Positions 14,711 to 64,000 of a stretch of 64,000 bases of DNA are shown piece by piece. The notes below the pieces were generated by a model, which did no database searches, was not told the origin of the DNA, and worked only from the letters and a program-made list of their open reading frames with translations. The stretch lies in assembly GCA_000004985.1 (NCBI GenBank), contig GG738857.1; one strand, 5' to 3'. Source of the stretch: Naegleria gruberi (taxonomy: Eukaryota). A program made the translations under genes and the position numbers. Numbering within the stretch: the stretch's first letter is position 1; each line of letters starts with the position of its first letter.

Positions 14711-17699
14711 ATGGCCGATCACAAAATGGTCTGCAAATTGGGTTTGTGTTTTGAGATGCGAGATTTAAAATTATTTATTAAATGTGTGATGATTACAGGC
14801 TGATAGGAAATATGTGTTGGAAGCTGTTAAACAAAATGGGTTGGCACTTGAAAATGCCGATGAATCTGGAAGCTGTTAAACAAAATGGATTGGCAATTGA
14901 ATTTGCTGATTCATCATTAAAAAAGATAGAGAAATTGTATTGGAATCTGTTAAACAAAATGGATATGCATTTAAATATGCCGATGAGTTATTGAAAAAAG
15001 ATGAAGAGTTTATATTGGAAGTTGTTAAACAAGATGGATTGGCAATTAAACATGCTGATTCATCATTACAAAAAGATAGAGAAATTGTATTGGAAGCTGT
15101 TAAACAAAATGTATATGCACTTAAATATGCAGATTCATCATTGAAAAAAGATAGAGAAATTATATTGAAATCTGTTAAGAAAAATGGATTGACACTTGAA
15201 TTTACTGATTCATCATTGAAGAAAGATAGAGAAATTGTATCGGAAGCTGTTAAACAACATGGATTGGCAATTGAGTTTGCTGATTCATCATTTAAAAAAG
15301 ATAGAGAAATTGTATTGGAAGCTGTTAAGCAAAATGTGTATGCAATTGAATTTGCTGATTCATCATTGAAGAAAGATAGACAATTTGTACTAGAAGCTGT
15401 TACGAAAAATGGATTAGTACTTGAATATGCTGATTCATCATTGAAGAAAGATAGAGAATTTGTATTAGAATCTGTTACGAAAAATGGATATGCATTTCAA
15501 TATGCTGTTTCATCATTTAAAAAAGATAGAGAAATTGTATTGGAAGCTGTTAAACAAAATGGAGCAGCGCTTAAATATGCTGATGAATCAGTTAAGGGAG
15601 ACAGAGAAATTGTATTGGAAGCTGTTAAACAAAATGGATTGGCATTTAAATATATTTATTCATCATTGAAAAAAAATAGAGAAATTATATTGGAAGCTGT
15701 TAAACAAAATGGATCAGCACTTAAACATGCTGATTCATTTTTGAAGAAAGATAGAGAAATTGTATCGGAAGCTGTTAAACAAAATGGATTGGCACTTCAG
15801 TTTGCTGATTCATCATTTAAAAAAGATAGAGAAATTGTATTGGAATCTGTTAAAAAAAATGGATCAGCACTTGAATATGCTGATTCATCATTTAAAAAAG
15901 ATAGAGAATTTATTTATTTGCTATTTAAATTGAACAAAGAAAATGCAAGAAACTTCTCACCATCTATATCCAAAACCATTGAAGAATGCTTAAATATTCA
16001 GAGAAAGCTGTCAAGCAATATAACTGAACAATACTCCAAAATATTTATGGATGAAAAGGATTTATATTATGCTATTGAATTAACAAGTCTCTTTAATCCA
16101 ACACCAAAAGGTACAATATTCAATTTCAATTCTATCTATACACCAATATTTATTGAAAAATTGATTATTTTTCAAATATTGAAACAAATGAACCATTCAG
16201 AATTGTCTAATGATATTATTGCTCTTATTGATTTACAAAGTACCAAAGCTAACTATTATTTATATTGTTTCAGATTGGACAAATTTCTTGAAGATAATCC
16301 CTGTCAATCAACAAGAATGAAAGATTTGAAGAATATTGTGGAACAAGTTGCAACAAACTTTGAAACGTCATTTTATACAAAACAGGAAATTAATGAAATT
16401 ATGATTTTTGCCAACAAGTGGTTTGAAAATGAGCAAACATTTGAAAATTACAAACAAATAATTTGTAAATATAATGAGCTGAGAGGAGATTTATCAAAAG
16501 TATTCAAATCTCTTAATTATTTCTATAATTATTTCAAAAATGATTATGATTTCATTTCAGTATTAGGATATGGAGGTGAAGGTGTTGCATTCAAAGTATT
16601 TCATAAAAGTAGTAAATCATTAAGGGCTTTAAAATTGAAATATGACCCAGAGGAATCTGAAGAATCAACAAAAGAAACCATTAATTTATTGAAAAGAACA
16701 GACATTGAAGGAAAGATCAAATGTTTTGATTGTGAAATTATTCAAAATCATTTATATTCAGTGATGGAACTTGGAGAGGAATCATTATCAAATTACATTT
16801 CAAGAAATAATGAAAGTGAAATTTATAGAAATGGATTCATTATTAAGGAAAAACTAATTGAAATTCTTGATATATTTATCAAAGTATTGAACTCAGTTCA
16901 ATCAATTCATGATCACAATATTTTACACAGAGATTTAGATCCTCAAAATATTGTCAAAGTTCAAGATTTATACAAAATTATTGATTTTGAAACATCAAGA
17001 GTGATCAAGACAGGTAATTCAATTACAATTGCTCGTGGAAAGTTTGCATACATGTCTCCTGAAGTTTCACATGATAATTATTCTGATGATTTATTGAAAA
17101 GTGGTAATGATGAAAAGCTTGCTCACAATGTTGGACAAATTACCATTTCATGTGATATATTTTCATTGGGATGTATTTTGTTGAAATTATTAACCAATTG
17201 TCCTTTGCAACTATGTTCAACATTTCTGAATGATTCAGATGTCTCTAAATATAATGATAATTACTTGTATTTTAGTGGACATGGAAAATATTTCTATACA
17301 GTTGTGACAACAACAGAGGGAGAAATGAAATTACATTATGCAATTGAAAAACTAATCAATGAAACAATTAATCCAGATTTAGGAGTGAATAACATATTGA
17401 TTAGAAGCATTATTAGCATGATTCAAAGAGATTCATCAAAAAGATTGGATTGTTATTCTCACAAGTTAACAATTGAGAATATTTTGAAATTTTTGAAAGG
17501 AGAAATCAAAGATATCACTTTCAATATTGAAAAACAAGTTGGAGAATTGAAGAAAATATCACCATTAAGAAGTTACTCTCAACTTGTAGAGGAAAATACC
17601 AAACTATTAGAAAGAATTAAATTATTGGAAGAGAACTCTTTATTGGAACGAATTAAAATGTTGGAAGAGGAAATAATAAATCTAAAAACAGACCAATAA
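14711..17699 (+). CDS. DUF4116-repeat / atypical protein kinase / coiled-coil family, copy A. The 5' repeat region is disrupted; the main intact ORF is 14940..17699
   Basis: It shares the family 5' structure: ATG at 14711, GTTTGT donor at 14742 and a TTACAG acceptor before GCTGATAGG at 14799. The segment 14860-14935 is out of frame because of a 26-nt deletion plus a 1-nt loss in an A-run, giving three in-frame stops. The ORF from 14940 on has about 13 25-aa repeats (LEAVKQNGxALxYADSSLKKDREIV), a helical linker, a kinase domain (LGYGGEGVAFKV, HRDLDPQN, DFETSR, YMSPEV) and a C-terminal coiled coil (LLERIKMLEEEIINLKTDQ). Confidence 0.6.
14799..15903 (+). repeat. Tandem 75-bp coding repeat array (25-aa DUF4116-like repeats) of family copy A
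   Basis: Visible 75-nt periodicity (gctgttaaacaaaatgg...gattcatcattgaagaaagatagagaaattgtattggaa). Alternative sense frames stay open across the array, which produces spurious ORFs such as 15484..15669. Confidence 0.85.
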
Positions 17700-18392: not shown

Positions 18393-19865
18393 ATGCCAAG
18401 TTTCATCAAGAGATTATCGTTACGAAATTCATTTCAACAACGTCAATCCATTCACCAAGATCGTAGAAGAACGATCCGAGCCATTCCCTTCTTTCAAGAT
18501 TTTAAAATTGCCATCATTGGAGATGAATGTGTTGGAAAATCGAATATTGCAATGAGATGTGCTGGAAAGGAGACGTTTGTGCCAGAACATGAACCAACGA
18601 TTGAAGATGAGTATAATTGTAAGGTACAGTTTATGTTTAGGTTGCCAGCACCTTTGGTGGAAGAAATAGTTTCGAATGGTGGTGAAGGAGATTCGAATGA
18701 ATTAATGAGAAGTAATCCCAAAGGTGATATTTATGGATATAAACAATTGGCACATGATTTGGAATTAATACCAATGGAATTGAGAAATTATATGAAATTG
18801 GATAATACTTTGCTATCAATTATTCAACAAAAAAGAGAAAAGGAAGAGGAAATGAAAAAAGCACTTGAGGAGAAACAAAAGAAAATGTTTAGTTTATTCA
18901 AGAAGAAATCAACAACGAGTGATTCTCCACAAAAATCTTCTCATGAGCATGCTGGAAATAATCAATCAGGAGAGGATGGAGATTTTGGAAGAGTAATCAC
19001 TGAGGAAGAGGACATTGATGATTATGTGGATGAATTACTTTCGGATGTGGTTTATAATTTCGAGCAGGACATTATTTGTAGAGTGACCATTGTGGATACG
19101 AGTGGGAGATCGGAAGTGAGAAAGGAAGCAACTGATTTGTCTTCAGTGGATGGATACATGTTGGTTTTTGATATGAATAATAAGGCATCATTTGCCAAGA
19201 TTCAGAATTATATTGATGAGTGTAAATTTGCCTACTATGAAAATCCTGCAAGGAAACATTCGGATGCAGCTGCTTCACACAGTTCGAGTAGTGCTCGATT
19301 GTCCTCTGCAAGTAATAATAGTTCAGCAACAATGAATTCAACCTCCTCAGCAAGTGCTGCCTCTTCCAATGTAAATAGTTCTAAACCATCGACAATTGAT
19401 AATCCTCCAATGGTCCTTATAATGAGTAAATGCGATCAGAAACCATCAGCCCTCAAGACCATTAATGCAGAGTATGGCTATGCTCTTGGAGATACTCATC
19501 ATTTTCCATTCTTTGTCACTAGTGCATGTGAAAATTTGAATATCCAAGAAGCATTAGAAGGTCTCCTGAGTGAAATTATCAAGAAGAACATTGAGGAAGG
19601 AGTTTACGAAACTCAAAACAAATCAATGCCAACACCACTACCATCTGCTGATGAAACTTTAAGCAAGACCAATAGTAGAAACTTTAAATTTGAGAATCAA
19701 AATATCAGTATCAGTAGCAATGCCAGTGATTACACTCCTGAATTGTTAACGTTCAGTGTTGGAAATGGAGTTGTTCCACAGAGTCCTCCTGAGAAGAAGA
19801 TTGTTCGTCAGAGTGTCTCTGCAACTCTGAGAAAGTATGTCGTTCAACAATTTAAAAAGAAATAA
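18393..19865 (+). CDS. Ras-superfamily small GTPase-like protein with large insertions and non-canonical catalytic motifs
   Basis: G1 is IAIIGDECVGKS, switch I is PTIEDEY, G3 reads DTSGRSE (Arg where the catalytic Gln sits) and G4 reads SKCD instead of NKxD. There is a roughly 130-aa acidic/K-rich insert and an S/N/A-rich low-complexity segment. The ATG at 18393 is preceded by caaa. Confidence 0.6.
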   Translation: MPSFIKRLSLRNSFQQRQSIHQDRRRTIRAIPFFQDFKIAIIGDECVGKSNIAMRCAGKETFVPEHEPTIEDEYNCKVQFMFRLPAPLVEEIVSNGGEGDSNELMRSNPKGDIYGYKQLAHDLELIPMELRNYMKLDNTLLSIIQQKREKEEEMKKALEEKQKKMFSLFKKKSTTSDSPQKSSHEHAGNNQSGEDGDFGRVITEEEDIDDYVDELLSDVVYNFEQDIICRVTIVDTSGRSEVRKEATDLSSVDGYMLVFDMNNKASFAKIQNYIDECKFAYYENPARKHSDAAASHSSSSARLSSASNNSSATMNSTSSASAASSNVNSSKPSTIDNPPMVLIMSKCDQKPSALKTINAEYGYALGDTHHFPFFVTSACENLNIQEALEGLLSEIIKKNIEEGVYETQNKSMPTPLPSADETLSKTNSRNFKFENQNISISSNASDYTPELLTFSVGNGVVPQSPPEKKIVRQSVSATLRKYVVQQFKKK

Positions 19866-19913
19866 ATGAATCTCTTATAATATTCCTTTTGTAACATTGT
19901 TAGAGTTTTACAT

Positions 19914-21513: not shown

Positions 21514-24500
21514 ATGACAAAACTTGTTTCTTGCCTTGCCACGGCCATCAAACTCGGAGTGGTGAGCACGTTTGTGTGCTCTTTTGTTTTGTTTCATATT
21601 TATTTCTTTTTGGAGAGATCTCCACCAGCTAATACAAAGCATTTTGATGATATGAATACTAATCCTTTAAATTTTGCTGATTTGAATTTATTTTCCATTC
21701 ATGATGAGAGTAGTATTGTGAAGGAAGGTTCATCGTCATCACCCGGAAAGAATAGAAGAAGACTTGTTCAACCAAAGAGCTTGAGAAAAATTGCTCTTGA
21801 TGAAATCGGAACTGTAAATTCAACCAAAGTTGTGAATGATGGTATGTAATATTTGTACAATAATTTTCAATTAATAATTAATAATTAACAATAATATAAT
21901 ATACAATGCAATATTCATCAATGAATAACAATAATTTTGGAATACTTGGAAAAATCTTCATCATGTGGATTAACAACAGATGACGAAAAAACATATTATA
22001 CTATTTTCCAAATTCATGGAACTCCTGGATCTAGACGATGGAGGTATCCAGTTGATCATCACTTTGTGAGGACTTTCGGAGGAGACAAAAAGTTGAGAAT
22101 TCTCAGTCTTGATAGACCTGGTATTGGTCAATCTACTCCAATAATATCTAGTATTGACTCGGAAGGTAATCCTGTCTATAATTTGGAACCTTTCAATGTG
22201 GATTATTATGAAGCTAGTGCTTTGGACCTTTTATATGTTGTGAGAAAGTTGAGATTAAAGCACTTTTCACTCTTTGCTTATTCTCAAGGTGCTGCTCATG
22301 CTACAATGCTTTCACACTATTTGGAACAATTAAAGAAGAGAGAACGTGGTGAAAAGGTAACTCATGCTCACTTGAAGAGCACTGAAAGATTCCACAATGA
22401 CTTGATGACCAAGATTTTATTGTCAAAGGATTCCGAAAAGTATTGGACTTTTGAAAATGGAGTTTCAAACTATACATCATCTACTGAATGGTCATGGAAA
22501 GATGTTACCATCGACAGAGTTGTCTTGATGGCACCACAAGGTTTCTATTCAGAAAAGGTCAGACAAGCTCTCTTGAAAGAGCAAGACATGACCATTCCTG
22601 AGCACAAGAGATGGTCTTCAAACCTTCATCAAATTTATTCTTTCCACAATTATCAACCACCACTCGGAACTAATATTGTTCATGCTGTATACAAGATGGT
22701 TTCACAATTGGGATTTATCACTAATATCAAATATTGGGAAGAAAATATGAAATTCATGCTTGATCCTTTGGGAAGAGATTCATTCATTTTCCATGATGAA
22801 GCTACTGGATGGAAGAAGGCTTTTAACAATACCATGATTGATACCTACAGATTTACTACCATGACTTTCCTTGTAGAAGTTTATAATAGTTATTATTTCA
22901 CTGAAAATTATGGACCTAACTTTGATATTTCCTTGAAGAATATTCCAACATGGATTTTGAAAGCTGAGGATGATATTCTTGTTCCAATTGAAGCTTTTAA
23001 TACCTTTGTTGAAAAGGTTTGCACCAATAAGGAAACTTGTAATGTCACTGTTGCTTCCAACACTACCCATTTCCAAATTTTCAAGAATTATTACACACAA
23101 TCTATTCAACACCTTGTGAAGGGAGTTTTTGGAGAAAGTGTCAGCCTTAGAAAGCCAAGAAGAAAGATTATTGTTATTGGTAGTGGTCTTGCTGGCTTGA
23201 CAGCTACTCTCGAATCTGCCTACACCTACGATCAAGATGTCGTTCTCATTGAAAAGGAACCTAGACTTGGAGGAAACAGTGCCAAGGCAACCAGTGGTAT
23301 GAATGCTATCCAAACAACAACACAAAGAAACGTTCTCGTCTTTGATTCATATACTCACTTTTGGAATGATACTATCAAGTCTTTCACAGGAGGAAAGGTC
23401 TTGTCTACCCTCAAGGAAGCTAGAAGAATCATTAGAAATCCAAAGAATAAGAAGAAGGTTGAAGGAGAGGAAAATTTAATTACAGAAAATTCTTGGAGAA
23501 TTTTGGAAACTCTTGTCAAGGATTCCAAGCCAGCCCTCCAATTCTTACAATCATTTGATGTGAAAATGGATGTTGTTTCCCAATGTGGAGGCCACTCAAA
23601 GCCAAGAACTCACAGAAGCATTAACAAGAGTGACAAACCAATTAACATTGGAAGTGATATTATTTCCAAGCTCTCTGCTTTTATTAGAGAAAAATTGGCT
23701 GAGCGTGTTGTCATCAAGACTGAACATCATGCCATTCAATTAATTTCTGAAGAAAATGATCTTGGAGAAACCATTGTCAAGGGTGTCAAGGTTTTGAACA
23801 TTAAGGAAAATACTACTGAAACAATTATGGGAGATTCTATCATTTTGGCAGCTGGTGGTTATGGTCAAGATAGAGATGGTTATTTGAAGCAATTCGCTCC
23901 ACACTCTGTCAATTTACCATCAACTAATGGTTTGTGGGCAACAGGTGATGGTATAAAGATGGCTGTCAGAGATGTAAACGCATCCTTGATTGATATGGGA
24001 GAAATTCAAATTCACCCTACTGCCTTTGTTGATCCAGCCAATCCTACTGCAATGACATTAATTCTCGCTCCAGAATCATTGAGAGGTTATGGTGCTATTA
24101 TTGTCAATCAAGAGGGTAAGAGATTTGTCAATGAATTGGGTACAAGAGATGAAGTCAGTGATGCCATCTTTGAAAATTGTGGAAGGAAGGAAATTATCCT
24201 CACGTTACTGCCTACATGATTATGAATGAATTTGTTATGAAATCATTTGGTGAAAGCTTGACCTCCTTCTATGCCAAGAAGGGTCTCATTCGTAAATATG
24301 AAAACTTTGAAGATTTGTGTCAAAAGGAAGAATTGAACATGTCTGCCAACTTTTGTGCCAACCTCGAAGATACCATTATTGATTATGATTATTCAGTCGA
24401 TTATAGAAGATCAGATCCTAACTATAAGGATTCATTTGGAAAGACAGTTTTCCCATCTAAATTCAATTTGGAAAAGAGTAAGGAAACTACTCCATTCTTT

Positions 24501-24731
24501 GTGGCAAGAATTACACCTGCTGTTCACTACACTCAAGGTGGTCTCTTATTCAACAATAAGGCACAAGTTTTGCGTAGAAAGACTCAAGATACAAACGAAG
24601 TAATTAGAAATCTCTATGCTGCCGGTGAAGTCACTGGTGGATGTCATGGTAAGAATCGTTTGGCAGGTAACAGCTTGTTAGAATGTGTAGTTTTTGGTCG
24701 TATTGCTGCCTCAGAAGCTGCCCAAGAATAA
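21514..24731 (+). CDS. Fusion protein of an N-terminal membrane anchor, an alpha/beta-hydrolase-like domain and a soluble FAD-dependent (NADH-type) fumarate reductase domain. The assembly has a frameshift near 24180-24215. Proposed exons join(21514..21841,21980..~24200) with continuation in another frame to 24731
   Basis: ORF 21514..21849 (TM anchor) ends at a GTATGT donor. A 138-nt AT-rich intron (21842..21979, ...AACAACAG, phase 1) joins it in frame to ORF 21937..24219. That ORF has a hydrolase region (nucleophile elbow FAYSQGAA) and the FAD-binding FRD N-terminus ([14 protein letters not shown]...[14 protein letters not shown]). ORF 24177..24731, in another frame, carries the FRD C-terminus ([10 protein letters not shown]...[33 protein letters not shown]). 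The frame switches within the GGAAGGAAGG tract. Confidence 0.6.
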
Positions 24732-27871: not shown

Positions 27872-30574
27872 AATGTCTGAAGATTGGGTTTGTGTTTTGT
27901 GATGCGATTTTATTAATGGGGGTGTGATGACTATCACAAATAATAGGCCGATAGGACATATGTGTTAGAAGCTGTTAAACAACGTGGAAATGCACTTAAA
28001 TATGCCGATGAAGCATTTAAAAAAGATAGAGAAATTGTATTGGAGGCTGTTAAAAAAAACGGATTAATAATTCAATATGCTGATTCATCATTGAAAAGAG
28101 ATAGAGAAATTGTATTGGAAGCTGTTAAACAGCGTGGATATGCAATTCAATATGCTGATTCATTGTTAAAGAAAGATAGAGAAATTGTATTGGAATGTGT
28201 TAAACAAGATGGATTGGCACTTGAATATGTTGATTTATCATTACAAAAAGATAGAGAAATTGTGTTGGCAGCTGTTAAACAAAATGGATTGGCACTTCGA
28301 TATGCTGATTCATCATTGAAAAAAGATAGAGAAATTGCATTGGAATCTGTTAAACAACGTGGATATGCAATTCAATATGCTGATTCGTTGTTAAAGAAAG
28401 ATAGAGAAATTGTATTGGAAGCAGTTAAACAAGATGGATTGGCACTGCAATATGCTTATTTTCAAAATGACAGAGAAATTGTATTGGAAGCTGTTAAGCA
28501 AAATGGATCAGCAGTTGAATACGCTGATTCATCATTGAAAAAAGATAGAGAATTTATATTGGAATCTGTTAAACAACATGGATTGACTCTTAAATATGCT
28601 GATTCATTATTGAAGAAAGATAGAGAAGTTGTTTCGGAAGCTGTTAAACAAGATATATTGGCACTTAAATATGTTGATTCATCATTTAAAAGAGATAGAG
28701 AATTTATATTGGAAGCAGTTAAACAACATTCATTGGCACTTGAATATGCTGATTCATCTTTACAAAGAGATATCGTTTTTACTTATTCACTTTTTAAATT
28801 GAACAAAGAAAATGCAAGAAAGTTCTCACCCTCTATAACCAAAACCATTGAAGAATCCATTAATCTTCAGAGAAAGCTGTCAAGCAATATAATTGAACAA
28901 TACTCCAAAATATTTATGGATGAAAAGGATTTATATTATGCTATTGAATTAACAAGTCTCTTTAATCCAACACCAAAAGGTACAATATTCAATTTCAATT
29001 CTATCTATACACCAATATTTATTGAAAAATTGATTATTTTTCAAATATTGAAACAAATGAACCATTCAGAATTGTCTAATGATATTATTGCTCTTATTGA
29101 TTTACAAAGTACCAAAGCTAACTATTATTTATATTGTTTCAGATTGGACAAATTTCTTGAAGATAATCCCTGTCAATCAACAAGAATGAAAGATTTGAAG
29201 AATATTGTGGAACAAGTTGCAACAAACTTTGAAACGTCATTTTATACAAAACAGGAAATTAATGAAATTATGATTTTTGCCAACAAGTGGTTTGAAAATG
29301 AGTAAACATTTGAAAATTACAAACAAATAATTTGTAAATATAACGAGCTGAGAGGAGATTTATCAAAAGTATTCAAATCTCTCAATTATTTCTATAATTA
29401 TTTCAAAAATGATTATGATTTCATTTCAGTATTAGGATATGGAGGTGAAGGTGTTGCATTCAAAGTATTTCATAAAAGTAGTAAATCATTAAGGGCATTA
29501 AAATTAAAATATGACCCAGAGGAATCTGAAGAATCAACAAAAGAAACCATTAATTTATTGAACAGAACAGACATTGAAGGAAAGATCAAATGTTTTGATT
29601 GTGAAATTATTCAAAATCATTTATATTCAGTGATGGAACTTGGAGAGGAATCATTATCAAATTACATTTCAAGAAATAATGAAAGTGAAATTTATAGAAA
29701 TGGATTCATTAAGAAGGAAAAGTTGATTGAAATTCTTGAAATATTTATCAAAGTATTGAACTCAGTTCAATCAATTCATGATCACAATATTTTACACAGA
29801 GATTTAGATCCTCAAAATATTGTCAAAGTTCAAGATTTATACAAAATTATTGATTTTGAAACATCAAGAGTTATCAAGACAGGTAATTCAATTACAATAG
29901 CTCGTGGAAAGTTTGCATACATGTCTCCTGAAGTTTCACATGATAATTATTCTGATGATTTATTGAAAAGTGGTGATGATGAAAAACTTGCTCACAATGT
30001 TGGACAAATTACCATTTCATGTGATATATTTTCATTGGGATGTATTTTATTGAAATTATTAACAAATTGTCCATTACAACTATGTTCAACATTTGTTAAT
30101 GATTCAGATGTCTCAAAATATAATGACAAGTATCCATATTTTAGTGGTCATGGAAAATATTTCTATACAGTTGTAACAACAACAGAGGGAGAAATGAAAT
30201 TACATTATGCAATTGAAAAACTAATCAATGAAACGATTAATCCAGATTTAGGAGTGAATAACATATTAATTAGAAGCATTATTAGCATGATTCAAAGAGA
30301 TTCATCAAAAAGATTGGATTGTTATTCTCACAAGTTAACAATTGAGAATATTTTGAAATTTTTGAAAGGTGAAATCAAAGATATCACTTTGAATATTGAA
30401 AAACAAGTTGGAGAATTGAAGAAAATCTCACCATTAAGAAGTTACTCTCAACTTGCTGAAGAAAATAACAAAATTACAGATGAAAAAACCAAACTTTCGG
30501 ATGAAAATAGCAACCTGTTAGAAAGAATTAAAATGTTGGAAGAGGAAATAAGAAAACTCACACAAACCATATGA
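27872..30574 (+). pseudogene. DUF4116-repeat / atypical kinase / coiled-coil family, copy B, interrupted by an in-frame TAA at 29303..29305. Exon 1 is 27872..27886 and the intron is 27887..27945
   Basis: The micro-exon ATGTCTGAAGATTGG (MSEDW) is followed by a GTTTGT...AATAG intron and an exon 2 in frame from GCCGATAGG. ORFs 27962..29305 and 29558..30574 lie in one frame. They are separated only by a TAA where every other copy has CAA (ENE*TFENYKQ against ENEQTFENYKQ). There is also an in-frame deletion in one repeat (YAYFQNDREIV). Confidence 0.7.
27946..28790 (+). repeat. Tandem 75-bp coding repeat array of family copy B (about 11 repeats)
   Basis: Periodic LEAVKQxGxALxYADSSLKKDREIV units at nucleotide level. 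Confidence 0.85.
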
Positions 30575-50726: not shown

Positions 50727-50957
50727 AGTTTAAGGATGAAGTTATGGTTTTCTGTAAAATAAAGTGCATCTAAAATGAGTTTTACTGGGTCTGTATAAGT
50801 TCCTTTCCTTTGAAGATCCATTTGGAGTGAGAATTGATTTATTTCTTGTGTATCATGTCAATGACATTTTGCTGCACAATTTTGATACTTATTTTCAATA
50901 TGAAGTCGCAAATTTCATTGCTAATACAAAGTATAATCTATCAACCAGGTTTGGTGT

Positions 50958-53900
50958 TTAATTTTGTTTGAGTTTTCTATTTTCCTCTTCTAATACTTTA
51001 ATTCTTTCTAATAGGTTGGTATTTTCCTCTACAAGTTGAGAGTAGCTCCTTAATGGTGAGATTTTCTTCAATTCTCCAACTTGTTTTTCAATATTGAAAG
51101 TGATATCTTTGATTTCACCTTTCAAAAATTTCAAAATATTCTTAATTGTTAACTTGTGAGAATAACAATTCAATCTTTTTGATGAATCTCTTTGAATCAT
51201 GCTAATAATGCTTCTAATCAATATGTTATTCACTCCTAAATCTGCATTAATCGTTTCATTGATTAGTTTTTCAATTGCATAATGTAATTTCATTTCTCCC
51301 TCTGTTGTTGTCACAACTGTATAGAAATATTTTCCATGTCCACTAAAATATGGATACTTGTCATTATATTTAGAGACATCTGGATCATTAACAAATCTTT
51401 CACACAATTGCAAAGGACAATTGGTTAATAATTTCAACAAAATGCATCCCAATGAAAATATATCACATGAAATGGTAATTTGTCCAACATTGTGAGCAAG
51501 TTTTTCATTGTCATCACTTTTCAATAAATCATCAGAATAATTATCATGTGAAACTTCAGGAGACATGTATGCAAACTTTCCACGAGCAATTGTAATTGAA
51601 TTACCTGTCTTGATAACTCTTGATGTTTCAAAATCAATAATTTTGTAATGATCTTGAACTTTGACAATATTTTGAGGATCTAAATCTCTGTGTAAAATAT
51701 TGTGATCATGAATTGATTGAACAGAGTTCAATACTTTGATAAATATTTCAAGAATTTCAATCAACTTTTCCTTATTAATGAATCCATTTCTATAAATTCC
51801 ATCTTGATTATTTCTTGAAATATAATTTGATAATGATTCCTCTCCAAGTTCCATCACTGAATATAAATGATTTTGAATAATTTCACAATCAAAACATTTG
51901 ATCTTTCCTTCAATGTCTGTTCTGTTCAATAAATTAATGGTTTCTTTTGTTGATTCTTCAGATTCCTCTGGATTATATTTTAATTTTAATGCCCTTAATG
52001 ATTTACTACTTTTGTGAAATACTTTGAATGCAACACCTTCACCTCCATATCCTAATACTGAAATGAAATCATAATTATATTTGAAATAATTATAGAAATA
52101 ATTGAGAGCTTTGAATACTTTTGATAAATCTCCTCTCAGCTCATTATATTTACAAATTATTTGTTTGTAATTATCAAATGTTTTCTCATTTTCAAACCAC
52201 TTGTTGGCAAAAATCATAATTTCATTAATTTCCTGTTTTGTATAAAATGACGTTTCAAAGTTTGTTGCAACTTGTTCCACAATATTCTTCAAATCTTTCA
52301 TTCTTGTTGATTGAGAAGGATTATCTTCAAGAAATTTATCCAATCTGAAACAAAATAAATAATAGTTAGCTTTGGTGCTTTGTAAATCAATTAGAGCAAT
52401 AATATCATTAGACAATTCTGAATGGTTCATTCGTTTCAATATTTGAAAAATAATCAATTTTTCAACAAATATTGGTGTGTAGATAGGATTAAAATTGAAT
52501 ATTGTACTTTTTGGTGTTGGATTAAAGAGACTTGTTAATTCAATAGCATAATATAAATCTTTTTCATCCATAAATATTTTGGAGTATTGTTCAATTATAT
52601 TGCTTGACAGCTTTTTCTGAATATTTAAGCATTCTTCAATGGTTTTGGATATAGAAGGTGAGAACTTTCTTGCATTTTCTTTGTTCAATTTAAATAGCAA
52701 ATAAATAAATTCTCTATCTTTTTTAAATGATGAATCAGCGTATTCAAGTGCTCGTACATTTTGTTTAACAGCTTCCAATACAATTTCTCTATCTTTTTTC
52801 AATAATGAATCAGCATATTTAAGTGCATATCCATCTTGTTTGACAGTTTCCAATATAAATTCTCTATCTTTTTTAAATGATGAATCAGCGTATTCAAGTG
52901 CTCGTACATTTTGTTTAACAGCTTCCAATACAATTTCTCTATCTTTTTTCAATAATGAATCAGCATATTCAAGTGTCAATCCATTTTGTTTAACAGTTTC
53001 CAATATAATTTCTCTATCTTTTTTAAATGATGAATCAGCATATTCAAGTGCCAATCCATTTTGTTTAACAGCTTCCAATATAATTTCTCTATCTTTTTTC
53101 AATAATGAATCAGCATATTCAAGTGCCAATCCATTTTGTTTGACAGCTTCCAATATAAATTCTCTATCTTTTTTAAATGATGAATCAGCATATTGAAGTG
53201 CTCGTACATTTTGTTTAACAGCTTCCAATATAATTTCTCTATCTTTTTTCAATGATGAATCAGCATATTGAAGTGCTCGTCCATTTTGTTTAACAGCTTC
53301 CAATATAAATTCTCTATCTTTTAGAAATGATGAATCAGCATATTTAAGTGCATACCCATCTTGTTTAACAGCTTCCAATATAAATTCTCTATCTTTTTTA
53401 AATGATGAATCAGCATATTTAAGTGCATATTCATTTTGTTTAACAGATTCCAATATAATTTCTCTATCTTTTTTAAATGATGAATCAGCATATTTAAGTG
53501 CCAATCCATTTTGTTTAACAGCTTCCAATATAATTTCTCTATCTTTTTTCAATATTGAATCAGCGTATTCAAGTGCCCACCCATTTTGTTTAACAGCTTC
53601 CAATATAAATTCTCTATCTTTTTTAAATGATGAATCAGCATATTGAAGTGCCAATCCATTTTGTTTAACAGCTTCCAATATAATTTCTCTATCTTTTTTA
53701 AATGATGAATCAGCATATTCAAGTGCCAATCCATGTTGTTTAACAGCTTCCAATACAATTTCTCTATCTTTTTTAAATGATGAATCAGCGTATTCAAGTG
53801 CATATCCATTTTGTTTAACAGCTTCCAATATAATTTCTCTATCTTTTTTCAATAATGAATCAGCGTATTCAAGTGCTGGTCCATAGCGTTTAACAGCTTC

Positions 53901-54533
53901 CAATACAATTTCTCTATCTTTTTTAAATGATGAATCAGCATATTGAAGTGCCCACCCATTTTGTTTAACAGCTTCCAATACAATTTCTCTATCCTTTTTA
54001 AATGATGAATCAGCATCTTCAAGTGCCGATCCATTTTGTTTAACAGCTTCCAATATAATTTCTCTATCTTTTTTAAATGATGAATCAGCAAATTCAAGTG
54101 CCAATCCATTTTGTTTAACAGCTTCCAATATAATTTCTCTATCTTTTTTAAATGATGAATCAGCGTATTGAAGTGCCAATCCATAGTGTTTAACAGCTTC
54201 CAATATAATTTCTCTATCTTTTTTCAATAATGAATCAGCGTATTCAAGTGCTGGTCCATAGCGTTTAACAGCTTCCAATACAATTTCTCTATCTTTTTTA
54301 AATGATGAATCAGCATATTGAAGTGCCCACCCATTTTGTTTAACAGCTTCCAATACAATTTCTCTATCCTTTTTAAATGATGAATCAGCATCTTCAAGTG
54401 CCGATCCATCTTGTTTAACAGCTTCCAACACATATTTCCTATCGGCCTATTGTTGTGATCATGATCATCACATTTTATATAATAATTATTTCACCACACA
54501 GCAACAAATACCAACCCACTCGTTTATGTTCAT
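50958..54533 (-). CDS. DUF4116-repeat / atypical kinase / coiled-coil family, copy D, the only apparently intact member. Exons complement(join(50958..54446,54516..54533))
   Basis: The micro-exon ATGAACATAAACGAGTGG (MNINEW) is followed by a 69-nt GTTGGT...AATAG intron (54447..54515). The exon-2 ORF encodes about 23 25-aa repeats, a linker, a kinase domain with the same atypical motifs as the other copies, and a coiled coil (LLERIKVLEEENRKLKQN). It ends in TAA followed by the 3' flank ttgtttgagttttctattttcc shared with the other copies. Confidence 0.8.
52715..54446 (-). repeat. Tandem 75-bp coding repeat array of family copy D (about 23 units, highly homogenised)
   Basis: Near-identical 75-nt units. 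Both alternative sense frames and one antisense frame are stop-free, which gives spurious ORFs 53321..54433 and 52840..53196. Confidence 0.9.
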
Positions 54534-57500
54534 TTTTTTTAAAGCTGTTCTCGCCCATCACATTCCGAATCAACTATCAAGATTTTTACACCAAGATTCA
54601 AAGAGATAAAACTTTGTGAAAAATGTATTCTCTTGATTTATTTTGAAATATTTATAAATTAGAACTAGTAAGTTAAGGGAAGTCATCAAAATTACACTTG
54701 GAGTAGGATGGTTTGAAAACGTCGAACATGAGGGTTGTTGAGAAAAATTAAAAAAGGAAATAATTAATAATATTAATAAATAATATAATTACAAAATAAA
54801 ATAATTAATAATACTACTAATTCAAAGTCAGGAAATTGATTGTTTGTTCAGGTAGATTTTCGATGAAACGACCGAAATTTTGGTTGTTGCTCCCAATACA
54901 GCACCTAGATGGCTGTGAGATTGGATGAAATTGTAGGTGGAGAACCTACCCTCAACTTTAACCTTTGGGAATTTGGGTAGGAACTCAGTAAGAGGAGAAC
55001 TTTCTGTAATTTCACAATGCACTCAGTTGTATTGTGTTACATGCTGTTCAACATTTACTGCTTTCATCTCGGTAAGCAGCATTCTCTGTCAATCATTAAA
55101 AACATACGATTTTCAAACATCTATTTTAGTAAGATTTCCTAATTGAAAATGCAAAACATACCAACATTAAAGCTAAATTATTGGATAAGGTGAACATTGT
55201 AATAATTCTGTTTAGCCAACAAGAACTTGGAACAATATTGGATCAACATCAGGTACATCACGACTCTGTTGATTCTTGGAGTGATTTCACATCTATTAAC
55301 TCCAAGAATTTCACCACATCATCTCATCATGATTTAAATAATAGCAATAATAGTAATTTTTGGAATTTAATCCTTCATCATGATTTGGAAATAATTTTAT
55401 TATTTGGAAAAATTCAAGTTGGTACATCATCATCGGAACAACTACCAACCATCATCATTGTTATTTATCATCATTATAATAGTAATATTTGTGGAAATAA
55501 ATCTGATAATAGTAATATTTTAGTGAAATTCAATATTTTCACTAAAATCATCATCACAGATTTATATATGATAATTTGGAAAATTTTCAATCTAGTATTG
55601 TTCAGCATGGTCAATTCCATCAGGTAAAATCACTTCCGAACATTTCCCTATTGGTTATCATGTATCTCAACATAATAAACAATATATTTATTATCAGATT
55701 TTCATAGTTTTGTGTTTTTACCAACTTCGGGGTATTCATGGTCACCAATCATGATTCATGCCAAAAGAACATAGCCAATCATCTTGAAACATTAATAAAC
55801 TTTTATTAGTACTATTGTAGATGTACTATATCAATTATTTCGTCTTGTTTCGTTGAAATCATGATTTTTCTGTTTTTAATTTCACATCACATACACCATA
55901 TTTGTTGATGTAAATTAGAAATGTAAATAATCCATTCTTGATTCTCTAATCGTGTTTTATTGTGTTTTGGTGTATTTAGGATTTTGAAATTATTCTGAAG
56001 TTATTCTTCATATAAATATGATTCTTCACTTCATGATATGAGGAGGGATTGATATCATGATTGTTTGGAAGTGTTGTACAAATTTTGGACACAACCTGAA
56101 TTGAAATCAGGAAGAAAGAGTCAAATCTTTATCACCATATAAAATAAGATCAATGGTTGTTTCCTCAAACATTGTGCTTCTTTGAAGAATTGAAATATCG
56201 CCATCAATTCTTTCACGTTGATTGATGAATCTATTTCGAACTTGCCTACGACGATAGTTTTTGAGGAGTGGATTGCAAATCCTTCCAGAGAGGCATCTGA
56301 ATTGATTATTATTGACTCTGGAGCGTCGAGCTCTAACCAAGAGCCTTCGGATTATTGGATAATTTTTCGTTATACCCTCAGATCTTTGGCAGGGCCTCGA
56401 TTCACTAGTATAGTTGAATTCCATCCTTTTGAATCTTGTAAACAAGAAAGGAAGTTCACAAAGGAAACAACACACTGTATCATCTCCATCTCATCCTAAA
56501 TAAAGAGTGGACACACCACTTCCTCCCAAAAACTGTTGCGCTCATTAATCTTTGGTAAGGGATTAATTTCTGAGTGAGGTTTTTCATCAATGTTTTTTTC
56601 TTATCCATGTTTTGAAGATCCAACTATTGATAACTTTTTTTTTACATCCTTCAAAGCAGGTTCCAGGCTGTTTCACCATTAAGGTGGTTCAGCCCCCGAG
56701 CTTTAATACCCAATTGTCTAAATATTATATGAACTGTATTTTGTGCGTTTACTATCGAAACATGCCATCGTTTATCTTTCCAAGATAAACCTGTATTCGT
56801 CTTTGGGACAACGTTGATAGGATTTAAAGAATAGGTTATAATTTGGTTTTGTAACATAGAGTCTATCTCTCTCCTTATCCATGTTTTCTCTTTCTGAGAG
56901 AACTTCTGTAGCCGTAAAGATGTTTCCTCTGTCTTTCCAGGAAAGAGTATCGCTGAAAAATGTTGATTCATCCTTATTTGAGTTGTTTTATTACCATAAT
57001 GGCAAAGGTTACTGTATGTGAAGAATCCACCTTAATTTGTAATTTTTTGTTCTGAAGCAGCAAACCAATGACGGAAAATAATATTAGGAAAAGACATCAT
57101 GTTTACTATTTTATTTGATGAAATCAAGTGGAGAATACATAAAACAGATGTTGCTACAAGAAAACACAATGTTAATAATAAAAATATAATTAATTATTGA
57201 AATAATTCAAGGAACTGGCTTTCCATCATGCATAATCTTTACGTAATTGCTCAGCAAAGAGCTTGGAAATTGTTTCACCAATCTTTCCCTTTTCTTGATT
57301 GATATATCTCAACAATAATTCAAGGTGGAAAATCAGCAAGATTTCCAACCTTGAAATTTACCTTGTTGGAAAATTTACCATTAGTGAATTTTATTTATGG
57401 TGCAATGATGATGACCATTAAGATATTTTCCTTAATGATCGGAAGTGAACTTGTTGATGATATTGATGATAAAAGATATGATGAAGCGAAAATTCCACAA

Positions 57501-58279
57501 CTCGATGAATACTAAGTGGAAAAATTCCAACTCTCTTGATGGTGATATTAGACATCCCTACTAATGATACTATGTTGTTGAAATTGATGATGATTCACCA
57601 ACTTGAATTTGTCCAATATCAAAATTACTATCTAATTCCATAACGATAAACTTCCACATAAAACTACTATTATTACTATTATATTGATGATGTATAGATG
57701 ATGAGGTTCCATTCTTGGAGTGGGAAGTTGAAGAACCACTCCGAAAATAAGCTACTCATAAAATTGATATTTTTTTTTGAATGCAAGATACGTCTTGGTT
57801 GAGTTTACTATTCTTTCGATGTCTTTGAGGCTCAAAACTGTGCAATTGGCTTCAGACTCAATATTAAGGAAGTATTGCTTCCATTTTTATTTTGCTTACT
57901 GGATTTTCCAGGAAAGATTTCTCTTAATATTGATAGACGTGGTACTGATAATTTTATAACTGTTAATGGTTTTGGTCCAAAATATGTCAGTAGTGGTACT
58001 GTTATTGCACGAGATAATTCTAAAGGTTATGAAATTTTTAATGCAAATAGAATTTATGATTTATTGTAAATACAAAATGAAGAAAATCAATAAAACTATT
58101 AAATAAATATTTTGTGAAATTGTTATGGCTGATGAAACACTTCTAGTAGTAGTACTTCCATATCTATTAATTGAATTGTTTACGGGAGGAAAAAAAAAAC
58201 TACTTTCATCAAAATTAACGCCTCCAGATGTGCATCCACAGCGCTGGCTATAACAAGAAAATGGACTTGTTGTACAATA

Positions 58280-58825: not shown

Positions 58826-59099
58826 TGTTTTCTTGTTTGTTGACTCATCTCAATTTGCCACCGCAACTAAATAGAATTGCAAAGAAGAAATGGGTGACCT
58901 TTCATGTCCACTTAAACAAAAAAGATCAATAAAAATGATCCCAAAACGATTATTATAACATATCAGGTAGTTAAATCCAAAGTGAAAGGACGTCCATACA
59001 GTCAAATGATCCACAAACATGTCAATCCCCATTGATTCTGTGTCACCCACATAAAATAATATTCGTAATTAATAATTTGTATATTTGGGTCTATTTGTC

Positions 59100-60540
59100 A
59101 GATATTTGAGTACCTCTTTTTGAGTTATTGTATTGTTGTCAAGCTTTGTAAATTCTCATGAAAGACTCAATGATAGTAGATGTTACTGAACTATATGCTG
59201 TGGTAATGTTTTTCGCAAATTCTTTAGATACAACCTGATTTTCTGGTTTTACAGTGTAGAGACTTAAATAATCTCCAATAAAACTACACCAAACACATTT
59301 TAATGTGAAATTCATAGGAGTTGTTCCCTCAAATATATATAGGAATTATCAGATGTATAACTTTCCGAATTTGAGTGATACCAAAATTGGTACCTTATCT
59401 ATCATAGGTTGGATCTACAGTACAATATCTAGATATTCCAACTAAATCTGGTTCAGATATCTGGACCATTCAAACATAATTTTTTTCTACATTGATTTAC
59501 AATTTTGATTACACTGCGCTTGGTGCACCTCTTACTAAGAAACTCTTTCCTGGAACTTCCTCTGGTGGTAGTTTTTCCATTAGCTGGAATCTGATTCCGT
59601 TTTTTATCCAATCCACAATTATTTCTGAGACGACGAATTCTGTCCAACGTTGATGGAAATGAGAGAGTCTACCACCTAGAGGAACCTGCTTGTCACTGGT
59701 GGAGGAATTGGAGTTGTTAGAACCGGATCCATGGCTATTGAATTGTCTTCTTCCATTATAAGTGGTTGGTGTTTGCTCTATTGAAATGGTCCGAGTCGTA
59801 TGGGACGAAGTGGTTAGACCTTTGATTAAATCTTCTCTTTTGAAGGTTGCTACTACTTTTCTTTGTCTCTGGGTTTTAACCAAGGTATTAACAATTCCTT
59901 TGCAGTTTCAAAACCACCAGAACCGGTTCACCCAATTTAATGGCAATACAATTTAAGTCAGCAATATTCTGGATGAATTCAATAGCTTGAAGCCATTCAA
60001 CTAAATCAAAAGAGTTACCATTTCTCAATCTTTTACAAACTTGTACAATACTTCTAAATTCTTTTCCACCATAAACATCAGGAACAGGGGCGTCAACTTC
60101 TCTGAAGAGTATTTGTAGCAAAGCCATTCTATTCTTGTGTGAAGAGAGTCTGCTGAATATTGTGCATTAGAAGTTGACAATATCAAATCAAATATATCAT
60201 CTGAAGATAACTCGTCATTAATTGACTCTCCAGTGATTGATTGATAGCAATCACGTAGATATTCCTTCAATGAAATACCTTCAGAAACCTTCACCCTTTT
60301 ACCAGTACCGAAATTGTTGTTCGAATCAGATTGTTTAAGATTAAGAATTTAGCGAGAGCAGCACACCTGAAGATACAAGACCGGAATTTTGAGAGGTTTT
60401 CAGGGTTGGCGATACGGTCTTGGCTTTGTTGATATGTAGTGGTTGAATCACCATCAGCATCTGTTGTGTCGGTAGCAGAAGATGAATCAGATGTGCTGAA
60501 TACTTCCACTCTTTGTTTAGTCGCCTATTAAGCATATCGG
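59100..60540 (-). other. Decayed coding remnant, possibly mobile-element derived, broken into four frame-shifted ORFs. It abuts the truncation point of the G-alpha pseudogene
   Basis: ORFs 59509..59883, 59888..60127, 60025..60294 and 60291..60509 are collinear on the minus strand in three different frames, which points to accumulated indels. There is no match to host-gene families recognisable by eye. Confidence 0.3.
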
Positions 60541-61170
60541 AATATTCACTTCTGGAATTACAGAGTATGACATTAATTTTGATGACAAGAAAGTGACATT
60601 TGTAACTGCAGCTGGAAAAACAAGTGAAAGAAAAAAGTGGAAATGTTTCCGTTTTGGCAGAATTCAATCAAACAGGTTATGGAGATGAGAAGGTGAATAG
60701 AATGGATGAAAGTTTGAAACTTTACAAGGAATTGATGACTCGTGTTTCGAATAATGGTAATAATACAAGAGTTGTCTTACTGTTTACTAAACCAGATATA
60801 ATGATGAGGAAATTGAGGAGTTACATTGAATTTGGAAGATTATTCGAAACTGAAACACTTACTGATCTTTCACGAATTGTAAACGATTATCACGAAAGGG
60901 ATGTTCTCAATACAATTATATCGAGCTATTTGAATGCAATAAATAATATTTATGGGAAAATACCAGAATATCACATTATTCAGTCGATATCAGAATTGGA
61001 CATTTCACAACTCGCCAATGTTGAATAATGAGAAAAATAGACATTATATTTCTAATTGCTTGTAATTGCTTGTTTGAGAAAATATCGCTTGTGAGATGTT
61101 ATCAATTAGTGATGGCTCAACAATTGACCGATTTAACAATTAAGTGTAAATTATAAAGTTTAAGGATGAA
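60541..61170 (+). pseudogene. Truncated duplicate of the 3' two-thirds of the G-alpha gene at 49599..50726
   Basis: Near-identical nucleotide sequence to 50088-50760 (acttctggaattacagagtatgacattaattttgatgacaagaaagtgacatttgt...). Internal deletions remove NFCLQGNVSVLVYVVSLAEF-coding segments. The 5' end stops abruptly at 60541 and there is no upstream start. Confidence 0.7.
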
Positions 61171-61284
61171 GTAATAGTTTTCTGCAGAATAAATTGCATC
61201 CATATTGAGTAGGACTGTATGCATCATCTGCCTCTCAACTTTGTTCACAAAATAGTTCAAAGCTGATCAACTTGGGAAATTTCC

Positions 61285-61340
61285 AAATGCCACGCAAAAA
61301 GATTGGATTGTTATTCTCACAAGTTAACCATTAAAAGAGA
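61285..61340 (+). pseudogene. About 50-nt relic of a family kinase domain (KRLDCYSHKLTI-coding), in the opposite orientation inside the copy E 3' flank
   Basis: aaaaagattggattgttattctcacaagttaaccattaaaag matches the kinase C-lobe segment of the family genes (aaaagattggattgttattctcacaagttaacaattgagaat). Confidence 0.5.
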
Positions 61341-61465
61341 AATCGAAATGATTTATTGAACCTTTCAAGTGAAATGAACAAACTGTTCAAATTTCAATGG
61401 CCCAGTTTGAAATCAATATATTTCGCATAGTTGTTTGTGGAACTTACATTTTGTGTGTTGGGAGT

Positions 61466-64000
61466 TTATTGTTTGAGTTTTCTTATTTCTTCTTCCAACA
61501 TTTTAATTCTTTCTAATAGGTTGCTATTTTCCATTGAAAGGTTGGTGTTTTCCTCTGCAAGTTTGTCAACATCCTCTAATAGGTTGGTATTTTCATCCGA
61601 AAGTTTATCAACTTCCTCTGCCAGTTGAGAGTAACTTCTTAATGGTGAGATTTTCTTCAATTCTGCAATTTCCTTTTCAATATTCAAAGTGATATCTTTG
61701 ATCTCACCTTTCAAGTATTTCAAAATATTCTCAATTGTTAACTTGTGAGAATAACAATCCAATCTTTTTGATGAATCTCTTTGAATCATGCTAATAATGC
61801 TTCTAATTAATATGTTATTCACTCCTAAATCTGGATTAATTGATTCATTGATTAGTTTTTCAATTGCATAATGTAATTTCATTTCTCCCTCTGTTGTTGT
61901 TATAACTGTATAGAAATATTTTCCATGACCACTAAAATATGGATAATTATCATTATATTTCGAGACATCTGAATCATTAACAAATCTTTCACACAATTGC
62001 AAAGGACAATTGGTCAATAATTTCAATAAAATACATCCCAATGAAAATATATCACACGAAATGGTAATTTGTCCAACATTGTGAGCAAGCTTTTCATTGT
62101 CATCACTTTTCAATAAATCATCAGAATAATTATCATGTGAAACTTCAGGAGACATGTATGCAAACTTTCCACGAGCAATTGTAATTGAATTACCTGTCTT
62201 GATAACTCTTGATGTTTCAAAATCAATAATTTTGTATAGATCTTGAACTTTGACAATATTTTGAGGATCTAAATCTCTGTGTAAAATATTGTGATCATGA
62301 ATTGATTGAACTGAGTTCAATACTTTGATAAATATATCAAGAATTTCAATCAACTTTTCCTTATTAATGAATCCATTTCTATAAATTCCATCTTGATTAT
62401 TTCTATAAATATAATTTGATAATGATTCCTCTCCAAGTTCCATCACTGTATACAAATGATTTTGAATAATTTCACAATCAAAACATTTGATCTTTCCTTC
62501 AATATCTGTTCTTTTCAATAAATTAATGGTTTCTTTTGTTGATTCTTCAGATTCCTCTGGATTATATTTTAATTTTAACGCCCTTAATGATTTACTACTT
62601 TTGTGAAATACTTTGAATGCAACACCTTCACCTCCATATCCTAATACTGAAATAAAATCATAATTATATTTGAAATAATTATAGAAATAATTGAGAGCCT
62701 TGAATACTTTTGATAAATCTCCTCTCAGCTCATTATATTTACACACTATTTGTTTGTAATTATCAAATGTTTTCTCATTTTCAAACCACTTGTTGGCAAA
62801 AATCATNNNNNNNNNNNNNNNNNNNNNNNNNNNNNNNNNNNNNNNNNNNNNNNNNNAGCCATAAATATTTTGGAGTATTTTTCAATTATATTGCTTGACA
62901 GTTTTGTCTGAATATTTAAGCATTCTTCAATGGTTTTGGATATAGAAGGTGAGAACTTTCTTGCATTTTCTTTGTTCAATTTAAATAGCAAATAAATAAA
63001 TTCTCTATCTTTTTTAAATGATGAATCAACATATTTAAGTGCCAATATATCTTGTTTAACAGCTTCCGAAACAACTTCTCTATCTTTTTTAAATGATGAA
63101 TCAGCATATCTAAGTGTTGATCCATGTTGTTTAACAGTTTCCAATATAAATTCTCTATCTTTTTTCAATAATGAATCAGCATATTCAAGTGCTCGTACAT
63201 TTTGTTTAACAGCTTCCAATATAATTTCTCTATCTTTTTTAAATGATGAATCAGCATATTCAAGTGCCAATCCATTTTGTTTAACAGCTTCCAATATAAT
63301 TTCTCTATCGTTTTTAAATGATGAATCAGCATATTCAAGTGCCAACCCATTTTGTTTAACAGCTTCCAATATAAATTCTCTATCTTTTTTAAATGATGAA
63401 TCAGCATATTCAAGTGCCAATCCATTTTGTTTAACAGCTTCCAATATAATTTCTCTATCTTTTTTAAATGATGAATCAGCATATTCAAGTGCTCGTACAT
63501 TTTGTTTAACAGCTTCCAATATAATTTCTCTATCTTTTTTAAATGATAAATCAGCATATTGAAGTGCTCGTCCATGTTGCTTAACAGCTTCCAATATAAA
63601 TTCTCTATCTTTTAGAAATGATGAATCAGCATATTTAAGTGCATACCCATCTTGTTTAACAGCTTCCAATATAAATTCTCTATCTTTTTTAAATGATGAA
63701 TCAGCATATTTAAGTGCATATCCATTTTGTTTAACAGCTTCCAATATAAATTCTCTATCTTTTTTAAATGATGAATCAGCATATTTAAGTGCCAATTCAT
63801 TTTGTTTAACAGCTTCCAATATAATTTCTCTATCTTTTTTAAATGATGAATCAGCATATTCAAGTGCCCATCCATTTTGTTTAACAGCTTCCAATATAAT
63901 TTCTCTATCTTTTTTAAATGATTAATCAGCATATTCAAGTGCCCACCCATTTTGTTTAACAGCTTCCAATACAATTTCTCTATCTTTTTTAAATGATGAA
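61466..64000 (-). CDS. DUF4116-repeat / atypical kinase / coiled-coil family, copy E. It is 5'-partial (runs off the window), is interrupted by an assembly gap, and has an in-frame TAA in the repeat array at about 63921
   Basis: ORF 61466..62806 covers the kinase and coiled coil (tail with extra DKLSDENTNLLE / LAEENTNL mini-repeats). ORF 62803..63894 covers the linker and repeats. The two are separated by 50 N. Upstream, gattaatca stands where the consensus is gattcatca (ADSSF becomes AD*SF). Confidence 0.6.
62807..62856. other. Assembly gap (50 N) inside family copy E
   Basis: Run of n. Compared with copy D, about 480 nt of linker/kinase N-lobe coding sequence is missing here, so the true gap size is unknown. 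Confidence 0.95.
62995..64000 (-). repeat. Tandem 75-bp coding repeat array of family copy E, continuing past the window end
   Basis: Same 75-nt periodic unit as the other copies, with alternative-frame ORFs 63165..63575 and 63612..63974. Confidence 0.85.

Follow-up and report, generated by a model that had tools for sequence, protein, structure and literature searches.

A cluster of five Naegleria genes joining DUF4116 solenoid repeats, a lineage-specific helical domain and a divergent Mps1-like kinase domain

What kind of protein is encoded by a gene that recurs five times along one stretch of an amoeba chromosome, and do its copies still make that protein? We examined this question in a stretch of 64,000 nucleotides (nt) from contig GG738857.1 of Naegleria gruberi (assembly GCA_000004985.1), hereafter the window, which is AT-rich (GC content ~32%) and carries long open reading frames (ORFs) in the standard code. 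Using self-BLASTN, Tandem Repeats Finder and the ORF listing, we identified five paralogues, here named A to E, that share one architecture: a micro-exon, a short intron, an array of DUF4116 repeats, a helical domain of ~210 amino acids (aa), a divergent protein kinase domain and a C-terminal leucine zipper. We read the cluster as a group of Naegleria-restricted soluble kinases, probably dimerised through the zipper, that evolve by birth and death; to this reading, including the mechanism proposed below, we assign a probability of roughly 65%.

Copies A (14711-17699) and B (27873-30574) lie on the plus strand and are deposited as P0001, under the name “serine-threonine kinase [N. gruberi]”, and P0005, respectively. 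On the minus strand are C (46001-48516; deposited as P0002), D (50958-54533; 1168 aa, identical to XP_002679628.1, NAEGRDRAFT_65330 and D2V8Y9) and E, which runs from 61466 to beyond 64000 and has its 5′ end past the window edge. The copies thus occur in two orientations, spaced by 7-16 kb of unrelated genes. An initial annotation, made from the sequence, had already reported five paralogues at these places, and the self-BLASTN and Tandem Repeats Finder results bear it out; its coordinates hold for A, C, D and E, and the start of B moves by one base, from 27872 to 27873. The same annotation described the copies as recent and of very high identity. This is supported, but the non-repeat part (linker and kinase) shows 90.4-94.8% nucleotide identity among copies, with pairwise dS of ~0.12-0.18, and not near-identity. 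A protein search with the non-repeat part of D returned N. gruberi proteins at 86-94% identity, and a sixth paralogue (P0003) lies on the same 573-kb scaffold, beyond the window.

The array of repeats has a period of exactly 75 nt, or 25 aa, in all copies (unit listing and Tandem Repeats Finder). A contains 13 intact units (14937-15911, plus strand) and two broken units at 14814-14936, B contains 11 (27962-28780, plus strand), C contains 8 (47816-48414, minus strand), D contains 23 of 75 nt, every one in frame (52707-54431, minus strand), and E contains at least 13 up to the window end (62998-64000, minus strand), in agreement with the earlier description of 8-23 homogenised 25-aa repeats whose number varies by copy. 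The hidden Markov model match to DUF4116 (PF13475) expected by the initial annotation is present in D with E=0, in 18 stretches. The PF13475 scores were 1052 bits for D, 647 for A and 91.6 for the C fragment, all above the gathering score of 24.9 bits. Structure prediction, which the annotation had suggested for the array, was carried out on D units 7-14 with AlphaFold2 (AF2) and gave an alpha-solenoid (predicted local distance difference test score, pLDDT, 97.9; predicted template modelling score, pTM, 0.90) with three short helices predicted per 25-aa repeat, of 10, 6 and 4 residues. We found no close solved structural relative for the DUF4116 array. Per-position entropy was highest at repeat positions 8, 10 and 13, which in the AF2 model fall on the turn between helices A and B and on one face of helix B.

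DUF4116 arrays are not confined to Naegleria: arrays with 40-60% identity were found in Lachnospiraceae, Gammaproteobacteria, Chlamydiae, dinoflagellates and 79 IMG/VR viral loci. The arrays on these 79 viral contigs, several of which are giant-virus metagenome-assembled genomes (GVMAG), are 40-54% identical to the Naegleria repeats. In the literature, DUF4116 appears just as an alpha-solenoid in an earlier trRosetta prediction (PMC8078820) and as one of the domain labels among viral genes transferred to Symbiodiniaceae (bioRxiv 10.1101/2022.04.12.488082). Other DUF4116 proteins of bacteria, protists and giant viruses resemble the Naegleria proteins in having the same 25-aa repeat and a predicted alpha-solenoid. 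They mostly consist of the array alone (~200-350 aa) or of an array fused to F-box, ankyrin or ubiquitin domains, whereas the fusion of DUF4116 with the linker and a kinase was found just in Naegleria. We also considered a viral origin of the whole gene and rejected it, as the linker has no relative in IMG/VR and the 79 viral loci show no kinase within 3 kb of their DUF4116 arrays; the repeat type alone is shared.

Between the array and the kinase, D encodes a family-specific domain predicted to be all-alpha (52074-52706, minus strand; aa 587-797). This is the conserved helical linker of the initial annotation; it is indeed conserved and, by prediction, helical (AF2, mixed confidence), but its length is ~210 aa and not ~190 aa. 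The linker has no Pfam match and no sequence match in the PDB, and a search of 1.84 billion representative proteins with a family profile of the linker yielded no convincing match outside Naegleria. The profile matched N. gruberi proteins, a single protein of N. lovaniensis (XP_044548422.1) and one bacterial protein (P0016), which was discarded as spurious because its match consists of 12 short stretches in a repetitive protein.

The kinase domain of D occupies 51111-52073 (minus strand). A Pkinase (PF00069) match had been predicted and was obtained at E ~1e-24 in each copy tested, with 84-86 bits in A, C, D and E (gathering score 31.7); in the window copies it spans just positions 1-196 of the 263-position profile. 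The domain has a GYGGEG Gly-rich loop, the beta-3 Lys (ALK; 51978-51992 in D), the alpha-C Glu (KETINLL), the HRD Asp and catalytic-loop Asn (HRDLDPQN; 51669-51692), the DFx Asp (DFE; within 51621-51641) and the APE Glu (SPE; within 51552-51569). These motifs are invariant or nearly so in 11 aligned members, including paralogues down to 38% identity; the alpha-C Glu is lost in family members P0004 and P0011. The activation segment is Ser/Thr-rich and of the RD type.

Two residues that are canonical in Ser/Thr kinases, the catalytic-loop Lys and the Gly of DFG, are absent. The Lys is replaced by Asp, giving H[RG]DLDPxN, in 14 of 14 N. gruberi members, and DFG is replaced by DFE in the window and by DFE, DFD or NFN across the family. 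The N. lovaniensis relative and all other kinases retrieved have Lys at the catalytic-loop position, and a literature search for “HRDLDP” found no paper. Two relatives carry two kinase domains in tandem: P0008, encoded on another N. gruberi scaffold, has an Asp-type domain followed by a canonical one with HRDLKPQN, and P0017 of N. lovaniensis has two domains that both keep the Lys, the first of which lacks the DFG Asp.

The initial annotation had called the kinase atypical. HRDLDPQN, DFE and the partial Pfam match agree with that description, with the correction that the nearest family can be identified. Searched against the PDB, a single kinase sequence matched TTK best (E 1.6e-13; next family 1.3e-10), and the family profile scored 95 bits against TTK versus 71 for the next family, a 24-bit margin among solved structures. 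When 5.8 billion proteins were searched with the family profile, the best non-Naegleria match was a Mycotypha protein (P0140), which a reciprocal check showed to be itself a clear TTK/Mps1 orthologue (E 5e-62). From these comparisons of sequence, the kinase domain is closest to Mps1/TTK, and the two also share an insert that follows the APE motif and precedes subdomain IX.

The family nevertheless differs from orthologues of the dual-specificity kinases Mps1/TTK in each of the traits by which these are recognised, namely a single gene, an N-terminal tetratricopeptide repeat (TPR) and kinetochore-targeting region, and an HxDLKPxN loop. N. gruberi has at least 14 copies per genome where Mps1 has one; their N-terminus matches DUF4116 and has no TPR match in Pfam; and their loop reads HRDLDPxN, compared with HSDLKPAN in Mps1, with DFE in place of DFG. 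In addition, the Naegleria kinase has an extra C-lobe insert of ~30 aa and shares its polypeptide with DUF4116 repeats, the orphan helical domain and a zipper, none of which is the case for Mps1/TTK.

At the C-terminus, D has a leucine zipper of four heptads (50961-51047, minus strand) with Leu at d and Tyr, Asn or Ile at a, and in E the kinase and a zipper of eight heptads occupy 61466-62806 (minus strand; heptad analysis). Leu is found at the d position in 4/4 heptads of D, 8/8 of E, 6/6 of B and 7/8 of C, and the a positions are held by Asn, Ile, Val and Tyr. Zipper length varies from four heptads (D) to eight (C and E); in E, Tandem Repeats Finder detected a tandem duplication of 42 nt, which lengthens the zipper by two heptads. 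What had been described as a leucine-zipper-like coiled coil is therefore a true heptad zipper in B to E, but A fits no single clean register (6/12 a/d positions hydrophobic). AF2 predicts a long terminal helix at the C-terminus. With Leu at d, apolar residues or Asn at a and at least four heptads, the segment is predicted to dimerise. The protein begins MNINEWADRKY and has no signal peptide or transmembrane segment of the kind expected in a receptor kinase; the sole hydrophobic 19-mer scoring >1.6 is the kinase alpha-F helix.

To what extent is this a known family? Counting members by database search, as the initial annotation had proposed, gave at least 14 in N. gruberi, including seven further intact paralogues on other scaffolds, and at least one in N. 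lovaniensis (XP_044548422.1). The Naegleria-like ENA metagenome contig ERZ929261 (3634 bp) encodes the linker and kinase start of a relative that is ≥90% identical over 393 aa to NAEGRDRAFT_57050, an N. gruberi member of the family, and the family is thus detectable in environmental data. We searched the literature for DUF4116, the gene and protein identifiers and the Naegleria kinome and found nothing on this family. The annotation's view that the family is not a characterised one holds to that extent, but the genes are not new: GenBank already lists them for N. gruberi under the names “predicted protein” or “serine-threonine kinase”. The product is an uncharacterised, lineage-specific solenoid-plus-kinase signalling protein whose genes became publicly available with the genome, and the combination of DUF4116 with an orphan domain, an Mps1-like kinase and a zipper, found only in Naegleria, appears to be restricted to this genus.

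Not all five copies can encode the protein as described. D is the sole fully intact one: an 18-nt micro-exon encoding MNINEW (54516-54533), a 69-nt GT...AG intron (54447-54515) and exon 2 (50958-54446), all on the minus strand, give a spliced model of 1168 aa that matches the deposited XP_002679628.1, a “predicted protein”, exactly. The micro-exon of 15-18 nt and intron of 59-69 nt reported by the initial annotation are also found, with GT-AG borders, in B (exon 1, 27873-27887, 15 nt; intron, 27888-27946, 59 nt) and C (exon 1, 48499-48516, 18 nt; intron, 48430-48498, 69 nt). They are not found in A, where exon 1 is 31 nt long (14711-14741) and out of frame with the canonical acceptor.

Re-reading the copies, we found lesions in A, B, C and E that were absent from the initial annotation. 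In A, the canonical acceptor at 14799 leads into stop codons, and the two broken units at 14814-14936 are one truncated unit and one unit frameshifted by a 1-nt deletion; the deposited A model depends on an intron of 184 nt that ends at 14925. In B, the linker is interrupted by an in-frame TAA at 29303-29305, where A reads CAA, and the deposited B model avoids this stop by dropping ~150 aa as a false intron, with which the start of the kinase domain is also lost. The lesion in C is the loss of 1 nt from repeat unit 5, near 48060. In E, a TAA stands in frame at 63922-63924, and an assembly gap of 50 N lies at 62807-62856; according to the alignment to the other copies, this gap takes the place of ~300 nt of linker. 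The deposited models of A, B and C step over their lesions through ad hoc, non-homologous introns and probably misrepresent pseudogenes or sequence errors.

The coding sequences nonetheless retain a signature of constraint. Pairwise dN/dS (the ratio of nonsynonymous to synonymous divergence) among copies is 0.24-0.37, and the ratio of nonsynonymous to synonymous changes specific to a single copy is 0.4-1.3 in every copy, compared with ~4.2 expected under neutrality; all copies show purifying selection. Since copy-specific changes are still biased to synonymous ones and dN/dS is low, the lesions look recent, or erased by conversion, or like allelic or sequencing errors. The cluster is in a birth-and-death phase, with D intact, the 5′ end of A remodelled, and B, C and E carrying recent disabling lesions.

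Three processes that the initial annotation had proposed, namely gene conversion, unequal crossing-over and ongoing duplication, each left traces. Parsimony-informative sites fall into conflicting blocks, grouping B with C in columns 10-99, A with B in 213-922, D with E in 1211-1324, and A with D as well as C with E in 1690-1791. Adjacent pairs of informative sites support the same partition in 34 of 70 cases versus 8.8 expected, a value reached in 0 of 20,000 shuffles (p<5e-5). These clustered and mutually incompatible patterns support gene conversion between paralogues. Within D, three pairs of units are 100% identical (2 and 7, 3 and 8, 21 and 23), supporting expansion and contraction of the arrays through unequal exchange. 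Mean unit identity is ~0.90 in D and E and ~0.80-0.82 in A, B and C, suggesting recent array expansion in D and E. Finally, the flanks of D and E are duplicated (50089-50780 versus 60549-61210, 93-98% identical, including the 3′ part of a G-alpha gene), showing that the cluster grew by segmental duplication. The relic noted in the initial annotation is an inverted fragment of a kinase C-lobe of 38-60 nt at 61279-61338 (plus strand), just 3′ of E, and we found no further relics outside the five genes in the window.

How might such a protein work? In the mechanism we propose, the zipper would form a parallel dimer, pairing two kinase domains that could then trans-autophosphorylate the Ser/Thr-rich activation segment. 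The solenoid arm would pick a partner or substrate through its stripe of variable positions (8, 10 and 13), and the Naegleria-specific helical domain may couple the arm to the kinase. The complete retention of nucleotide-binding, metal-binding and catalytic residues argues for an enzyme that is active, or at least ATP-binding. Several observations weigh against this picture. Asp at the position of the Lys that contacts the gamma-phosphate could abolish phosphotransfer, and the tandem of Asp-type and canonical kinase domains in P0008 is like the pseudokinase/kinase pairs of the JAK type. Four of the five copies are damaged, so that the protein as described may come from D alone, or possibly from A as well. 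The AF2 model of the linker plus kinase is poor (pLDDT 64.8, pTM 0.41). The pN/pS ratio at repeat positions 8, 10 and 13 is 0.80, close to the 0.75 at other positions, and we do not claim diversifying or positive selection there.

It is possible that the products are pseudokinases, in which the Lys-to-Asp change and DFE abolish phosphotransfer and the protein serves as a dimeric nucleotide-binding scaffold or allosteric regulator with the solenoid as its docking arm. The occurrence of Asp in all 14 N. gruberi members, the canonical domain downstream of the Asp-type domain in P0008, the lack of the DFG Asp in one of the two N. lovaniensis kinase domains, the first, and the divergence of the C-lobe, seen in a Pfam match that stops at profile position 196 of 263, would all fit. 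However, the other ATP-binding, metal-binding and catalytic residues are near-invariant in paralogues as distant as 38% identity, while pseudokinases usually lose several catalytic residues, and active enzymes of the kinase fold without this Lys exist (Rio, Bud32, aminoglycoside and choline kinases). On balance, we regard loss of catalysis as unlikely. The lesions raise a different doubt, namely that D is a functional gene amid decaying pseudogenes and that similarity among the copies reflects recent duplication and gene conversion instead of function in each copy. The nonsense codons in B and E, the frameshift in C, the broken first exon and units in A, and the ad hoc introns of the deposited A, B and C models all point in this direction. 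Against it stand the excess of synonymous changes in every copy, the low pairwise dN/dS, which leaves room for lesions that are very recent, allelic or sequencing errors, or conversion-erased, and the seven additional intact paralogues on other scaffolds; we therefore hold it to be conceivable but doubtful.

One might also suspect that the assembly has mislaid one or two loci, or two haplotypes, as five copies, as such repeat arrays assemble with difficulty and a 50-N scaffold gap lies within E. But the copies diverge by 5-10% in nucleotides, they vary in repeat number, zipper length and type of first exon and intron, their flanking genes and orientation differ, and even the flanks of D and E are just 93-98% identical. 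An assembly artefact is therefore very unlikely, and the copies pass as separate loci, a point on which the initial annotation had depended. At the other extreme, the family could serve the amoeba as an intracellular surveillance or decoy system, and its Lys-to-Asp loop (HRDLDPxN), strictly conserved with all other catalytic residues kept, might represent a new way of running or gating phosphotransfer in a eukaryotic protein kinase. Clustering, birth-and-death evolution, gene conversion, variation in repeat number and variability on one face of the solenoid are traits reminiscent of immune receptors, and because DUF4116 is widespread in giant viruses and amoeba-associated bacteria, the repeat arm might bind or mimic DUF4116 proteins of invaders. 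We consider this improbable and offer it as speculation. Our preferred reading remains that of soluble, zipper-dimerised kinases.

Kinases with solenoid repeats or zippers are known from other lineages, among them the Giardia expansion of ankyrin/coiled-coil Nek kinases, ankyrin-repeat kinases, LRRK/ROCO and MLK/DLK/ZIPK. The Naegleria proteins resemble these in their design, which combines a solenoid for partners, a kinase and a coiled coil for dimerisation-driven activation, and in forming a lineage-specific protist expansion with some catalytically doubtful members. They differ in the kinase subfamily.

The genes around the cluster were characterised as well. A complete G-alpha gene (49494-50726, plus strand; Pfam G-alpha E 2e-45) lies tail-to-tail with D and is the source of the duplicated flank. 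Its partial duplicate at 60549-61210 (plus strand), consisting of the 3′ part alone, takes the same position beside E and is probably a G-alpha pseudogene fragment from the segmental duplication. The 6-kb spacer between D and E contains an inverted repeat of ~140 nt at 77% identity (55299-55434 versus 57586-57721). ORFs in this spacer (55-60.5 kb; e.g., 56651-56971 and 59509-59883) have no Pfam match, and we therefore make no claim of a transposon. Another kinase gene, this one canonical and combined with NHL repeats and EGF-like domains, is found at 2052-4952 (minus strand; Pkinase E 5e-44), beside an NHL-repeat ORF at 5005-7044 (minus strand). The window is rich in signalling genes, with Ras/Roc-like GTPases at 18393-19865 and 44236-45747, and it also encodes a C2-domain protein (10155-14507), a discoidin-domain protein (33081-38144) and an F-box/leucine-rich repeat protein (38483-40006). 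Two overlapping ORFs that differ in frame (21937-24219 and 24177-24731, plus strand) together carry an alpha/beta-hydrolase and FAD-binding (fumarate-reductase-like) gene, and this split suggests either a short intron or a frameshift.

Among protists, repeat-plus-kinase genes have commonly expanded within single lineages, and the finding alters no general principle. It provides a first domain-level description of a Naegleria-specific kinase family so far labelled just “predicted protein”, and it revises the deposited models of A, B and C, in which invented introns conceal pseudogene-type lesions. It also supplies a high-confidence model for a widespread, uncharacterised repeat, DUF4116, that is common to protists, bacteria and giant viruses. 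Purifying selection has maintained the Asp that replaces the catalytic-loop Lys even in paralogues as distant as 38% identity, making the family a natural test case for the role of that Lys.

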